Source: Marinicella sp.
GTDB lineage: Bacteria > Pseudomonadota > Gammaproteobacteria > Xanthomonadales > Marinicellaceae
NCBI GenBank assembly: GCA_965230295.1
Contig: OZ246001.1
Span: 608,001-672,000, forward strand
Direction of reading: 5' to 3'
DNA length: 64,000 nucleotides
Shown here: piece by piece, positions 1,116-54,571 of the stretch
Layout: each line of letters begins with the position of its first letter
How positions within the stretch are numbered: the stretch's first letter is position 1
Program-made: the position numbers and the translations under genes
The notes under the pieces: model-generated
What the model was told of the DNA's origin: nothing
What the model saw: the letters and a program-made list of their open reading frames with translations, nothing else
Databases searched by the model: none

Positions 1116-1494
1116 GGAGAACTGTCGAACAGTTCGACCAGCGCAGGTAATGAAAGCTTGGTGGTTTACCTGATAAGGTAATAAGCCTTGCTTGAATACC
1201 ATAGCGCGTGCACTCGGTTAGGCAGATCATGTAAGAATGGCGATTTGACAAAGTCAAGAAGCCTTGATGGAATGATCGATAAGCCGTGAAGCCTCGCTGG
1301 TCGCTTCCGCATCGATCCCCAGAACGGGGTGAATGCAGAGAATTGTTGGGAACAATTCCTGCCTGCTCACGCGACAGACCTACATCCCTGTAGGCCAGCC
1401 AGAGGGTGTAAGCCCGAGATAGCAAGCCATGCCCGTCGAGGCCGTTTTCACTTTTGTTTCAACAAAAGTGAATGAAGTCCCAAGGGCATTCCTT
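1116..1494 (+). repeat. Modular palindromic intergenic repeat, copy 1 (~380 bp)
   Basis: Shares head GGA-hairpin-GACC and tail TTTCACTTTTGT...GAATGAAGYCCCAAGRRCATTCCTT with 24739-24887 and 53939-54571; 1307-1367 is nearly identical to 54340-54400. Confidence 0.9.
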
Positions 1495-11685: not shown

Positions 11686-11760
11686 GGACGCGTAGCTCAG
11701 CGGGAGAGCACTTCGTTGACATCGAAGGGGTCACTGGTTCAATCCCAGTCGTGTCCACCA
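11686..11760 (+). tRNA. tRNA-Val (GAC)
   Basis: Acceptor stem GGACGCG/CGTGTCC, TAGCTCAG D arm, anticodon arm CTTCG-ttGACat-CGAAG, GGTTCAATC T loop, encoded CCA. Confidence 0.97.
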
Positions 11761-13750: not shown

Positions 13751-15538
13751 CTATTCAAAGTCATCTTCAAAGATCAAATCGAATGGGGCCACACAATTAA
13801 CAGTCACTTGTACTGCCGCTGACGAACCACCATTCAGGGTGTAGGTAAAATCATCAGTGGGGTTACCATCATTGCAGTAATCCATCAAGGGCGAATATTC
13901 CACATTCGCACCGGCTGCTCCAATGATGACCGTACCATTGGCAGGTTGAGTTACTGAATCAACAAATCTAGGACCGCCATCAGGATCAAAGTCATTACTG
14001 ATGACATCGATCACTACATCGACCTCATTTTCATTCAAGCTAGCCACATCGGGACTAGCGGTTGGCAAAGAGTCTATACATGCTACAGTGATGTTTACAG
14101 TGGTTGAGGAACCACCATTGAGGGTATAACTGAAATCATCAGTTGGGCTGCCGTCATTGCAATAATCGGCATCAGGCGTGTACAACAGCGCTGACCCTCC
14201 CGATCCAATCACCACAGTTCCATTGACAGGTTGTGTCACTTGACTCACAAATTTAGGGCCACCATCAACATCGGTATCATTGAACAGCACATCTATCACA
14301 TTATCTGTGGTGTTTTCATCGACTGTCTCAATGTCAGCATTGGCTTGCGGTGCAGCACTCAGTTGCCAGTCACCAACAGGATGCAAAGTGGGACCACCGG
14401 TCTTACATAACATGCCATCAGGAGCGATGTCGTTGACTGCAGTTCTATACCAAAACACCAGGTTCTCACCAACCAATGATTCTGGAAGGTTCCCTGGGTC
14501 ATTCACATCACCAACCAAGTTTTCCTCTTCCAATTGACAATCGAACAGAGAATTATCAGGTTGGTCAGCATACTCTGGCACACCATTATTTAATTTGTAC
14601 TTTGTGGCCATCACATCCACTTCATGGAACCCAACTCCGCTGGGATCAGCAGGTACAGCATAATCATCGATTTCGCCTTTTTGTGAATCACCACCGCCTC
14701 CAGCTACCACCCGGTATCCTCTACCACTCACGCTGTCTTTAATCACCCAAGTGACTTCATCAGTAAAAACATTGGGGTCATTGGGTTGACCACTGGTGAT
14801 TTCCCGAAAATCTGCGAACTCAGTGGTCTGTAAGGTTTCTCCACTCGAGTCAGCAATGAACACCTGATCGTCGTTGATGCCATCAATGTCAAAGTTCAAC
14901 CGCCAATAAGCATGATGCCAGTGAGTTGTCGAATTTTGGGTGCCATTTCTGTTCCCAAAACCAAATCGGGGCTGTATGCGACCATCGGCATGAAATATAT
15001 ACCGCACTGAATATTTATACCAAGAAGCCGCATGATTGGTGGTCAAAACCATACGGTCGCTGTATTTTTCAACCTGAACACCAGTGATACAATCTACGGG
15101 GTTGCCAGCCTGGCCTCCTTGAGGCAAATCGAAAGGACAAAAACCAACGCCATTAGAGTCTGTTGCTGAAGTAGAAACATCACATGTGGTTATGGCTGGC
15201 CTGGTTGGGTTTTCAACCACGTCTGCTCTTAAAAACTCTGCATTGTCGTCTTTCCAGTCTCGATAGCACAAACCAGAGGTGTATTGAGCAAACAATATGG
15301 GGACATGCGCACGCTCTAACACCAACAGCTCATTAAAGTAAACATTTCTGACTTCCAAGCTAGACCCCCTTGACGCAGAACTTTGACCGGGTGACAAATA
15401 ACACATTTCCCACACGGGATCGACTGTTGGCCACCCAACATATGTTTCATTGATGTTGGTATCACAAATGGATGGCCCCACTGCAGCTGAAACATGGCTG
15501 GAAACCAGACATGTGAAAATAAGTATCAAGTATTTCAT
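13751..15538 (-). CDS. Secreted copper-amine-oxidase-like protein with two Ig-like (cadherin/Big_9) repeats and a DLIFEDDFE tail
   Basis: Signal peptide; WYKY...DGRI and HWHHAYWRLNFDIDG resemble the CuAO core; two ~92-aa repeats containing DV..ND.D.DG. Confidence 0.65.
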   Translation of the reverse strand: MKYLILIFTCLVSSHVSAAVGPSICDTNINETYVGWPTVDPVWEMCYLSPGQSSASRGSSLEVRNVYFNELLVLERAHVPILFAQYTSGLCYRDWKDDNAEFLRADVVENPTRPAITTCDVSTSATDSNGVGFCPFDLPQGGQAGNPVDCITGVQVEKYSDRMVLTTNHAASWYKYSVRYIFHADGRIQPRFGFGNRNGTQNSTTHWHHAYWRLNFDIDGINDDQVFIADSSGETLQTTEFADFREITSGQPNDPNVFTDEVTWVIKDSVSGRGYRVVAGGGGDSQKGEIDDYAVPADPSGVGFHEVDVMATKYKLNNGVPEYADQPDNSLFDCQLEEENLVGDVNDPGNLPESLVGENLVFWYRTAVNDIAPDGMLCKTGGPTLHPVGDWQLSAAPQANADIETVDENTTDNVIDVLFNDTDVDGGPKFVSQVTQPVNGTVVIGSGGSALLYTPDADYCNDGSPTDDFSYTLNGGSSTTVNITVACIDSLPTASPDVASLNENEVDVVIDVISNDFDPDGGPRFVDSVTQPANGTVIIGAAGANVEYSPLMDYCNDGNPTDDFTYTLNGGSSAAVQVTVNCVAPFDLIFEDDFE

Positions 15539-24180: not shown

Positions 24181-24732
24181 ATGAGCCGAAAAAGCAAACA
24201 CAACAACCCCTCTGAAAACCATACACAAGACGATGAAGTCATCAGCAAAACCCAAAAAAAGCAAATGGTTCATGAGTTACAAGAACTGGCTAAAGTCATC
24301 ACCGGCATGCCAAAGAAGAAAATCGCTCAATTAGACCTGTCTGACAATTTCCTGGATGCCATCAACGAGTCCAAACGCATCACCAGTCACATAGCCAGAA
24401 AAAGACATTTCCAATACATGGGTAAACTACTGCTCAAAGCCGATCACACAGCCATCAAAGCACAGATTGAACAAGTTGAGAACAGTGACGGCCACTACCA
24501 AGTCAGAGATGCGGTGATTAACTTATGGATTGAACATTTTGTCGAGCATGAAAAAAAACTGTTTGATCATCTGTACCAGCACCATGACAATGAATTACTC
24601 AGTGCCCTCAGACAAACTTTAAGAAATCACCGCAAAAAACCTGATAACACGGCCAACCGGAAAAAACTATTTCAAGCACTGCGTCAGCTTGACCAGCAGA
24701 TTGAATTACCCAATCCGGTGACCTTGGTCTGA
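24181..24732 (+). CDS. yjgA: Ribosome-associated protein YjgA/DarP
   Basis: SKTQKKQMVHELQ...ARKRHFQYMGKL; divergent from pmbA as in other gammaproteobacteria. Confidence 0.85.
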   Translation: MSRKSKHNNPSENHTQDDEVISKTQKKQMVHELQELAKVITGMPKKKIAQLDLSDNFLDAINESKRITSHIARKRHFQYMGKLLLKADHTAIKAQIEQVENSDGHYQVRDAVINLWIEHFVEHEKKLFDHLYQHHDNELLSALRQTLRNHRKKPDNTANRKKLFQALRQLDQQIELPNPVTLV

Positions 24733-24738
24733 CTCAAT

Positions 24739-24887
24739 GGAAAGCTGCTGAGCAGCTTGACCCGCCGAGCCGGTTGGTGAGCCTTGCGAAACAGAGGCGA
24801 AGAGCGCGAGGTAGCATGTCATGTTCGCCGTGGTCGCTTTCACTTTTGTCAGGAACAAAAGTGAATGAAGCCCCAAGAACATTCCTT
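24739..24887 (+). repeat. Modular palindromic intergenic repeat, copy 2 (minimal, ~150 bp)
   Basis: First ~37 nt nearly identical to 53939-53975; tail nearly identical to 1446-1494 and 54547-54571. Confidence 0.9.
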
Positions 24888-24899
24888 AGTTAATGGCGC

Positions 24900-25592
24900 C
24901 TATTCAGCATCTGATATTTTAAGCCCCACACCTGGGATGGTGTGTAGCAGTTGTTTGTCGAAAGGTTTGTCGATGGTTTTGCGTAAAATATACAAATGGC
25001 TGCGCAACACATCTGAATCTGGAATCAAGTCACCCCATAACTGCTGTGCCAGCTGATCTTTTGACACCACTTCTGGTGATTTTTTCATCAAAATTTTCAA
25101 AATTTGCAGGCCAGTGGGAGAGACTTTCAGTTTTTGTTTTTCTCGGGTCACCTCCATTGTCCCCAGGTCAAATACCAAGTCACCCACTTTCATTGCTTTG
25201 CTGTCAAATTCACCTCTATGACGCCTGATCATGGATTGCAACCTGGCAATCAATTCATCAGGGTTAAAAGGTTTGGCCAAATAATCATCGGCACCCGTAT
25301 TGAACCCCTTGAGCTTGTCGCCAATCTGGTCTCTGGCTGTCAACATGATGATCGGTACATCAGATTTGGCTTCCCTACGGATTTTATCGCATATCTGAAA
25401 ACCATCTAATCCAGGTAGCATCACATCCAATATCACTGCATCGTAGGGGTTGGTGACTGCCAAATGAAGACCAGTGATACCATCTGCTGCAAAATCCACT
25501 GTAAAGTCAGCCAACTCTAAATGGTCAGCAATGGTTTGAGCCAGGGCTTGGTGGTCTTCCACTAATAGTACATTTGTGCTTTTCTGAGTCAT
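24900..25592 (-). CDS. OmpR family response regulator
   Basis: REC domain (VED, LDVMLPG, LTA, KPF) plus winged helix. Confidence 0.93.
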   Translation of the reverse strand: MTQKSTNVLLVEDHQALAQTIADHLELADFTVDFAADGITGLHLAVTNPYDAVILDVMLPGLDGFQICDKIRREAKSDVPIIMLTARDQIGDKLKGFNTGADDYLAKPFNPDELIARLQSMIRRHRGEFDSKAMKVGDLVFDLGTMEVTREKQKLKVSPTGLQILKILMKKSPEVVSKDQLAQQLWGDLIPDSDVLRSHLYILRKTIDKPFDKQLLHTIPGVGLKISDAE

Positions 25593-53938: not shown

Positions 53939-54571
53939 GGAAAGCTGCTAAGCAGTTTGACCCGCCGAGCCGGTTAGGCAAATCATGCAATCATGGCGAT
54001 TTTGCAAAGCAAAGAAGCCTTGATGTAATGATTGATTAGCCGTGAGCTTTTGTTATAGCGGCCGCTATCGCTCCTAGCTATCGCGGCAGACCTACATCCA
54101 TGTAGTCACCTCTGATACCGGCATCCTGCCTCCTCAGAGGACTTACTTCCATGTAAGCCAATCAGAGGCGAAGAGAATAGCCAATGAGCATATGGTGATT
54201 TGACGAAGTCAAGAAACCTTATGTGAATGGCGTTATAGCACAGGCAATGAAAGTTGGGCGGTTTTATCGAAGATAAAGAAGCCCGATTTGAATGCCGCAG
54301 TGCGTGCGAGGTAGCAAGTCTTGTTCGCCTCGGCAGCTACCGCATCGATCCCCAGGACGGGGTGAATGCAGAGAATTGTTGGGAACAATTCCTGCCTGCT
54401 ATCGCTGCATACTTACATCCATGTAAGCAGTCGTTTTCACTTTTGTCTGGAACAGACATGCAGTGCGAAGCAACTGCTCAGACAATAGTCTGTAAAGGTC
54501 GGTTTATTTGCGCAGCAAATATGAAGACCTGTCAGACCATGAACCAGAATGAAGCCCCAAGAACATTCCTT
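53939..54571 (+). repeat. Modular palindromic intergenic repeat, copy 3 (largest, ~630 bp)
   Basis: Same head and tail as copies 1 and 2; contains modules homologous to 1141-1211, 1215-1289 and 1307-1367 plus extra hairpins. Confidence 0.9.

Follow-up and report, generated by a model that had tools for sequence, protein, structure and literature searches.

Separate histories of hairpin modules in a genus-specific mosaic repeat of Marinicella

The 64,000-nucleotide (nt) window analysed here, positions 608001–672000 of a single 4,008,074-bp contig (44% G+C) from a member of the genus Marinicella, contains three copies of an intergenic repeat composed of hairpin modules on a common scaffold, and the modules have separate histories. 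The repeat belongs to a genus-specific family of about 100 non-coding, hairpin-rich, intergenic mosaic elements. We interpret it, with a probability of roughly 0.7, as a mosaic whose hairpin cassettes have come and gone with precision at a small number of scaffold sites, and in which whole composites have also spread. A sequence-only reading of the window had proposed that the modules each move or recombine on their own, not all at the same time, and this proposal is supported by the contrast in identity between the module named C and its surroundings, by filled and empty sites, by repeated gain or loss of C, by the occurrence of module B at no fewer than three sites and by units of C and D that lack a scaffold.

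The three copies in the window and their module order

Positions up to 64,000 refer to the window, and larger ones to the contig, here called the genome. The copies represent two subfamilies, subfamily I (copies 2 and 3, left end GGAAAGCTGCTGAGCAGCTT) and subfamily II (copy 1, left end GGAGAACTGTCGRACAGTTC). All three are intergenic, copy 3 terminating 2 bases ahead of the stop of the next gene. The module positions given for copies 1 and 3 by the sequence-only reading were borne out by our own reading of the region and by a repeat scan, and the ends of copy 1 were set by alignment of 13 subfamily-II copies together with left-end and right-end scans. Copy 2, a bare scaffold, was absent from that reading. 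The features are as follows, all on the plus strand.

1116–1494 (+): copy 1, complete subfamily-II element of 379 nt: L' hairpin, B, A, C-filled D-unit, P2 3' strand and core, R hairpin, right end
1116–1139 (+): L' terminal hairpin of copy 1, GAACTGT/ACAGTTC, covarying helix 1 of the scaffold
1141–1211 (+): B-type hairpin cassette of copy 1, between the L' hairpin and CTCGGTT; copies 1508474, 1811142 and 1402889 are empty here, with GGCGCA joined to CTCGG
1215–1289 (+): A hairpin cassette of copy 1, 85% identical to 53971–54045; empty site, CGGTT joined to GGCGAAGCC, in copy 759520
1290–1399 (+): D-unit of copy 1; a GTCGC/GCGAC helix closes a loop made of TTCCGCAT and CCTGCTCAC, the D hairpin (1379–1394) follows, and GCTGG/CCAGC encloses
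1313–1361 (+): C core of copy 1, 49 nt, two hairpins, in the D-unit loop; recognized from its element-borne copies, empty sites and identity contrast with the flanks
1307–1367 (+): C of copy 1 as delimited by the sequence-only reading
1400–1494 (+): 3' half of the scaffold of copy 1: P2 3' strand, core (1414–1446), R hairpin (1447–1472), right-end motif (1470–1494)
24739–24887 (+): copy 2, minimal subfamily-I scaffold of 149 nt, between convergent genes with stops at 24730–24732 and 24900–24902
24821–24826 (+): ATGTTC, 5' strand of the long-range helix of copy 2, pairing with GAACAT at 24877–24882
53939–54571 (+): copy 3, complete subfamily-I composite of 633 nt: L, A, two empty D-units, Bl, B, core, C-filled D-unit, R 5' arm, E, right end
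53971–54045 (+): A hairpin cassette of copy 3, the counterpart of A of copy 1
54046–54108 (+): first D-unit ('X-D') of copy 3, empty; CCGC/GCGG closes the loop, TATCGCT joined to CCTAGCTATC, and a D hairpin comes next; homologous to the D-unit of copy 1
54109–54160 (+): second D-unit ('Y-D') of copy 3, empty; CCTCTGA/TCAGAGG closes the loop, TACCGGCAT joined to CCTGCCTCC, then a D-type hairpin; 12 copies in the genome
54175–54236 (+): Bl, a B-like (H1-type) hairpin cassette of copy 3, 3' of CAGAGGCGAAGAG; same place in other species
54237–54307 (+): B-type hairpin cassette of copy 3, directly 5' of the core, used in the comparison with B of copy 1
54306–54338 (+): scaffold core (K) of copy 3, a family of the repeat scan
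54346–54394 (+): C core of copy 3 in the third D-unit (about 54325–54432; D hairpin 54411–54428), with an empty counterpart at genome 2017179
54340–54400 (+): C of copy 3 as delimited by the sequence-only reading
54455–54546 (+): E cassette of copy 3, replacing the R hairpin 3' arm; 39 full-length copies
54547–54571 (+): right-end motif of copy 3, GAATGAAGCCCCAAGAACATTCCTT

When copy 1 was compared with copy 3 by BLAST, the two proved to be non-colinear: B of copy 1 aligns at 54241, A at 53971, C at 54340 and D at 54082–54105. The E-values range from 6e-14 (A) to 2e-29 (C), and the module matches are far beyond chance. C, as delimited above, is nearly identical between the two copies (60 of 61 positions), and A (64/75, 85%) and B (52 of 73 aligned columns, 71%) are more diverged, as the sequence-only reading had stated; the BLAST coordinates also agree with its placement of C on the 5' side of the core in copy 1 and on the 3' side in copy 3. 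The module order is B-A-C-D-core in copy 1 and A-D-D-Bl-B-core-C-D-E in copy 3.

The different position of C reflects paralogous D-unit slots that are filled differently in the two copies. A D-unit consists of a short helix that closes a loop of the type YCCGCAT followed by CCTGC, and of the D hairpin after it; in subfamily II it is located at the tip of the P2 hairpin. Copy 3 holds three such units, two of which, both empty and with their hairpins inside 54087–54160, had been described as D-type hairpins, and the single D-unit of copy 1 corresponds to the first of the three. D is 13/18 identical between copies 1 and 3, and the D hairpin of copy 1 is closest to the first D of copy 3 (54082–54105, 22/24), not to the D that follows C there. 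In copy 1, C is found in the D-unit that follows A; in copy 3, it fills the one that follows the core. The earlier description of the modules as shuffled is thus correct in that the order differs between copies, but it is overstated, because part of the difference stems from the paralogous D-units and because a single orientation is kept throughout: all modules within an element point the same way, and the one reversed module encountered belongs to the neighbouring element at 3614211–3614760.

Filled and empty cassette sites across the genome and the genus

The three copies match about 124 merged places in the genome, with no locus longer than 656 nt. A whole-genome scan with the 25-nt right-end motif, allowing up to five mismatches, gave 116 right ends, and there are 102 left-hairpin matches, including eight from four perfect palindromes counted on both strands. 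Paired left and right ends define 81 complete elements of 149–633 nt, 14 of them exactly 149 nt and seven exactly 633 nt long; nine copies reach at least 600 nt. Seven other long copies are 95–98% identical to copy 3 along their whole extent, with matches that go no further than the element ends; therefore, the composite multiplies as a unit. A catalogue of module order across the 81 complete elements, which is approximate because it relies on regular-expression motif counts, contains more than 40 motif-defined architectures, with A in 46 elements, D in 41, E in 39 (plus two with a second E type), B-type hairpins in 34, Bl in 23 and C in 21.

A DNA search detected the scaffold in 18 of the 23 other Marinicella genomes and, as a weak match, in one of 17 genomes outside the genus, and a covariance model of the scaffold detected it in none of 150 genomes from other families of the class. 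The intergenic site orthologous to that of copy 2 is empty in six relatives, so the elements are insertions relative to other species. Among the papers listed, judged from titles and abstract openings, none dealt with repeats of this type in Marinicella.

In the alignment of 13 subfamily-II copies, the junctions are clean wherever a module occurs or is missing: B separates GGCGCA from CTCGGTT, A separates CGGTT from GGCGAAGCC, and E takes the place of the R hairpin 3' arm. The C core lies between CCGCAT and CCTGCT, a junction that is the same in filled and empty sites and in both slots. Of the 24 element-borne C cores, 19 fill the subfamily-I D-unit downstream of the core and five the subfamily-II D-unit downstream of A, and empty C slots are found at genome 2017179 in subfamily I and in at least six copies of subfamily II.

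These data bear on the possibility that all copies descend by deletion only from a long colinear ancestor that carried every module in every slot. Such a history predicts C cores as diverged as the D-units (57–67%), yet between the subfamilies (17 × 4 pairs) the C core is 98.8% identical, with 57% identity in the 20 nt to its left and 67% in the 40 nt to its right; in a representative pair, 49/49 positions match in the core versus 38/60 in the flanks (Fisher p = 3e-7). The same is true of E, which is 99.3% identical between the subfamilies (27 × 5 pairs) versus 85.2% for the adjoining 25-nt right end. Furthermore, B lies 5' of the P2 arm in copy 1 (subfamily II) and 3' of it in copy 3 (subfamily I), which deletion does not explain, and the C-bearing copies of subfamily II are not monophyletic. 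Outside C, the 173 shared columns show 7–10 differences between copy 1 and each of three C-less copies and 14–15 between copy 1 and each of three other C-bearing ones; hence, C has been gained or lost at least twice at one site. Losses do occur, as shown by slippage deletions and expansions (at 1584050 and 3281470, CAGAC repeats bound a deletion within E, and at 3334762 a stretch of 28 nt is triplicated) and by intra-element deletions between paralogous hairpins (for example, 3334398), and the module order of subfamily I is constant, as deletion would leave it. However, reordered modules and, in other species, C-D units without a scaffold were found where the sequence-only reading had said that a deletion-only colinear ancestor would contradict it, and we consider such an ancestor very improbable.

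The sites of B-type hairpins (AGCRCAGG ... GYAGYGCGTGC) number at least three: immediately 3' of the L' hairpin in subfamily II, inside the A 5' stem (for example, 1836739 and 3077329) and directly 5' of the core, the last in subfamily I but also in a few copies of subfamily II (1892930, 3614432 and 3497296). Other variants point to exchange between hairpins. A hairpins with an identical outer stem carry different apical hairpins, one element has A fused to Bl at their common AAGAAGCCTT with all in between deleted, and element 2934276 is a chimera in which a subfamily-II L' hairpin is joined to B and core of the subfamily-I type. Part of the variety thus comes from recombination between paralogous hairpins. 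It could be argued from these cases, from the approximately 100 homologous partner copies and from the presence in both C slots of CCGCAT, CCTGCT and a few more bases that the cassettes are immobile and have spread solely by ectopic gene conversion or template switching, with new positions arising by unequal exchange of paralogous hairpins. However, the near-identity at the C site extends over merely 9–10 nt on the left and 6 nt on the right, and RecA-dependent exchange usually needs well over this length. The subfamily-II flanks of C are alike in filled and empty copies, so that no conversion tract is visible, and the C-D units of species without a scaffold would need another route. Recombination as the only process therefore seems unlikely to us.

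In this genome nearly all of the candidate stand-alone modules lie in diverged or truncated scaffolds, the exceptions being two H1 apex motifs (2499649–2499805), a D-like hairpin (1247246) and a partial C-like hairpin (1985627). In two other species, however, C-D units do occur without the scaffold: genomes G015 and G003, in which the DNA search found no scaffold, carry C-filled D-units, and G015 also has an adjoining empty D-unit and a C-like insert inside a D hairpin. No scaffold was found within 1.5 kb of these units by the covariance model with filters off. In genome G018, tandem empty D-units lie beside a mere fragment of the P2 region. Elsewhere in the genus, A with the first D-unit, D with Bl, and B recur in unchanged arrangement.

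In sum, the 149-nt scaffold carries self-contained cassettes at a limited number of fixed points: the H1-type hairpins (A, B and Bl), the D-units, the C core and the E cassette of about 92 nt. The cassettes are there or missing with base-precise junctions, a given type occupies different points depending on the subfamily, and some are near-identical across scaffold subfamilies diverged by 15–40%. Composites multiply as whole units, and deletion between paralogous hairpins probably yields further variants. In our preferred interpretation, the order differs between copies 1 and 3 because cassettes are gained and lost singly at fixed points.

Several unusual arrangements were also observed in the genome. 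Four head-to-tail, diverged scaffolds of 122 nt without a left hairpin form the only tandem array of the family seen (1313102–1313532). At 701199–701372 there is a fold-back, in which an inverted right end and R 3' arm are joined to the second E type and a normal right end, such that two right ends face each other. Solo right-end hairpins of the form AAGGAATG-loop-CATTCCTT, with no scaffold upstream, lie at 205228, 918514, 1195501, 2086825, 2100562, 2122440 and 3144763. Perfect palindromes of the left hairpin and GGAAAG head (GGAAAGCTGCTSAGCAGCTTTCC) lie outside elements at 902117–902139, 1199636–1199658 and 2341473–2341495. A further short repeat, of the type CACTTCGG...GCTCAGTG, is present in the R-hairpin loop of two elements and has its own cluster at 1028932 (381493–381665, 2290357–2290529 and 1028800–1028960).

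Scaffold fold, insertion sites and replication bias

The fold of the 149-nt scaffold was derived with RNAalifold from an alignment of 48 minimal scaffolds, of which 19 belong to this genome and 29 to other species. One strand folds into 41 pairs with five covarying helices, among which are the terminal hairpin, P2 (a long and irregular hairpin) and a long-range helix around the R hairpin. Paired cells amount to 98.7% versus 91.8% in shuffles, and changes on both sides affect 19 pairs and 131 cells versus 9.4 and 28.5 in shuffles, values reached in none of 500. When the partners are slid by 1–3 columns the pairing is 33–43%, a control that is tilted towards the fold because the structure was derived from the same 48 sequences. 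The long-range helix ATGTTC/GAACAT (columns 86–91 with 142–147) has both-side changes at four of its six pairs, involving 21 sequences at one pair, and becomes ATGTCC/GGACAT in subfamily II and in some other species. At the pairs U-G 37:59 and G-U 40:56, the G-U pairing is kept in 46–48 of the 48 sequences. The strand read from left to right end folds better than its complement in 62 of the 81 elements, by a mean of 6 kcal/mol, and in the predicted fold the cassettes appear to sit at or beside loops, bulges and junctions.

Such a fold might belong to a structured RNA, either a multi-copy non-coding RNA or a part of an mRNA, with the cassettes as expansion segments at helix tips and with selection acting on the transcript. 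The covarying helices, including the long-range one, the G-U pairs that are invariant on one strand and the location of the cassettes would agree with this, as would the identity of the scaffold between species of 81–89% versus 66–77% for the genes that flank copy 2, although the scaffold value is the best of many copies and is biased upwards. However, the orientation of the 81 elements relative to neighbouring genes is random (22 convergent, 17 divergent, 21 sense and 21 antisense), no conserved promoter-like positions are found upstream, and no family of Rfam 15 fits the elements at the gathering score across the window or at E-values up to 5 on copies 1 and 3. Moreover, the orientation bias described below tracks replication and not transcription. 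A role as structured RNA is in our view quite unlikely.

No k-mer of 2–5 nt is common to the two flanks above shuffled controls at any offset in the 81 elements, so no target duplication is detected. Base −4 of the left end is C in 77 of the 102 left-hairpin matches and is followed by three bases that are mostly A or T (for example, at window positions 24735 and 1112); the right flank has no matching feature. The commonest tetramer 5' of the left end, CAAT, occurs in only 5/81 elements, and there is no fixed target tetranucleotide. Downstream of the right end, the next three bases follow the pattern W, W, T, the T occurring in 77/116 cases. The motif TAWAAT is found within a few bases after the right end in 13/116 cases, compared with 0.8% of random genomic 18-mers, and could represent a target preference or an outward −10-like box. 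The only candidate terminal inverted repeats are GGAAAG ... CATTCC, complementary at 5/6 positions, with GGAGAACTGTC opposite GGACATTCC in subfamily II.

The replication origin was assigned to about 1.71 Mb (dnaA at 1,721,237) and the terminus to about 3.82 Mb from cumulative GC skew, gene strand and the position of dnaA. The left-to-right strand is the nascent lagging strand for 80 of the 116 right ends (p = 5e-5) and for 59 of the 81 complete elements; this includes 49/64 in subfamily I and 9/9 long copies, and a 0.1 Mb shift of the origin does not alter the result. Taken together, the lack of target duplication, the better folding of the left-to-right strand and the replication bias hint at a single-strand step. 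Insertion and removal of the cassettes may be precise, site-directed events that act on single-stranded, folded DNA at the replication fork, brought about by an enzyme or by short-homology template switching, a mechanism that we put forward tentatively and at somewhat less than even odds. This fork-linked step is our preferred guess, and its main rival is short-homology copying from one element to another.

Several points weigh against precise gain and loss of cassettes in this manner. The strand bias is not significant in subfamily II (10/17), and it could also result from selective loss of one orientation. IS608 transposition is reportedly coupled to replication, and, supposing that the strand with the better fold is the active one, the bias found here runs opposite to the direction reported for IS608. 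The strand asymmetry is itself modest, since G-U pairs in the whole-element folds number 713 and 705 on the two strands, and the whole internal fold is conserved beyond the needs of the known hairpin-recognising transposases. Copies within one genome share kinship, so the statistics overstate their independence. As judged from the flanking sequences, short-homology copying between copies may account for C. With regard to an enzyme, comparison of the genome with itself revealed no transposase-bearing repeat of 500 nt or more and no long repeat resembling an insertion sequence (IS), and TnpB was not found in the genome. The hairpins on either side of the genome's single Y1 transposase gene belong to another family, of about 41 copies; the orthologue of this gene occurs in G003, a genome without the scaffold, and is missing from G019 and G021, where the elements are numerous. 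The Pfam domain Y1_Tnp occurs in 16 of the 24 genus genomes and is missing from G021 (99% complete), G019 and G016, all of them element-rich. There is thus no link of the mosaic elements to the single Y1 transposase.

The Y1 gene is RAYT-like and lies at genome 1669221–1669880 (positions 1260–1919 of locus L056, with the gene at 1300–1863 of that locus, 187 amino acids), and its flanking hairpins are built on GACTTCAGTC / GACTGAAGTC. The 10-mer of these hairpins occurs 18 + 23 times in the genome and marks a second, separate REP-like family, some copies of which adjoin mosaic elements (1862500, 2113605, 3094489 and 3219335). Within the window, a tRNA gene (11686–11757) is the sole match at the Rfam gathering score, and a coding-like direct repeat of 83 nt (13800–13882 and 14085–14167, 77% identical, 285 nt apart) is unrelated to the mosaic family.

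Comparison with known repeats and significance

The closest analogues appear to be the mosaic repeats BOX, BIME and ERIC. In PMC3049150, BOX elements of streptococci are described as boxA - boxB(n) - boxC, with boxD, boxE and boxF in addition in S. suis; the likeness lies in the composite intergenic structure, the fixed end modules, the variable and independently folding internal hairpins, whose number can therefore vary while the remainder is left intact, and the absence of a proven enzyme, which is common to both families. The Marinicella elements share the conserved ends and variable self-folding inner modules by which BOX is recognized, a likeness in architecture alone. BOX varies mainly in the copy number of one tandem module, whereas several cassette types occupy at least six points in Marinicella, with one cassette nested in another; the Marinicella scaffold also has a covarying long-range fold, and the phylum differs.

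The REP, BIME and REPIN sequences resemble our elements as abundant short extragenic palindromes arranged in mosaics, with presumed single-stranded handling and a single-copy Y1 gene (PMC2817692, PMC3116915, PMC3337134 and PMC3733652). REPs are defined in PMC3733652 as short GC-rich palindromes with a GTAG or CGTC tag at one end. The D hairpin (CCTACA-loop-TGTAGG) has the form CTAC...GTAG in place of a GTAG head ahead of the palindrome, with GTAG at its 3' foot on both strands, and the other cassettes are untagged, so that the elements are not REPs by this definition. They are not BIMEs by alternating orientation of REPs, since all of the cassettes are co-oriented, nor are they linked to a RAYT, since the hairpins next to the Y1_Tnp gene are of the GACTTCAGTC kind and its distribution across 24 genomes does not follow that of the elements. 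Classification as miniature inverted-repeat transposable elements fails on target duplication (none in 81 elements) and on a parent IS (none in the genome). Elements derived from IS200/IS605 (PATEs) are similar in their subterminal hairpins, lack of duplication and of clear terminal inverted repeats, and reported orientation bias relative to replication. They differ in that no TnpA/TnpB partner with matching ends was found here, in that there is no fixed target of 4–5 nt, only the C at −4, and in the direction of the bias, which is mismatched if the better-folding strand is the active one.

ERIC, a repeat of enterobacteria, is said to be an imperfect palindrome of about 127 nt with structure-preserving substitutions and with longer variants that carry inserts at fixed inner sites, and small dispersed repeats of cyanobacteria reportedly insert into each other and into hairpins. 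Compared with ERIC (IRU) and with these nested repeats, to which no sequence similarity is claimed, the Marinicella family apparently has more cassette types and sites and is confined to a single genus.

The scaffold could even be the working part of an undescribed mobile system, in which a single strand, either DNA at the fork or RNA, would fold so as to bring its two ends together and would offer defined loops as landing sites; we regard this as a decidedly long shot. If it were true, the C core (49 nt) and E (about 92 nt) would be among the smallest site-specific mobile units of bacteria, entering loops of the type CCGCAT joined to CCTGC without duplication, and the driver would be a host enzyme or an unrecognised one and not a known transposase family. 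The practical value of the family is modest: the elements mark insertion polymorphisms between genes, and they will confound short-read assembly and annotation in Marinicella.

In conclusion, BIME, BOX and ERIC have been known for decades, and the way in which their modules are assembled is still obscure. The Marinicella family offers unusually clean material for this problem, with five cassette types whose filled and empty sites are resolved to the base, with young cassettes that are identical between two diverged subfamilies of one genome, and with a covarying scaffold that marks the constrained parts, while the replication-strand bias points to a single-strand step.

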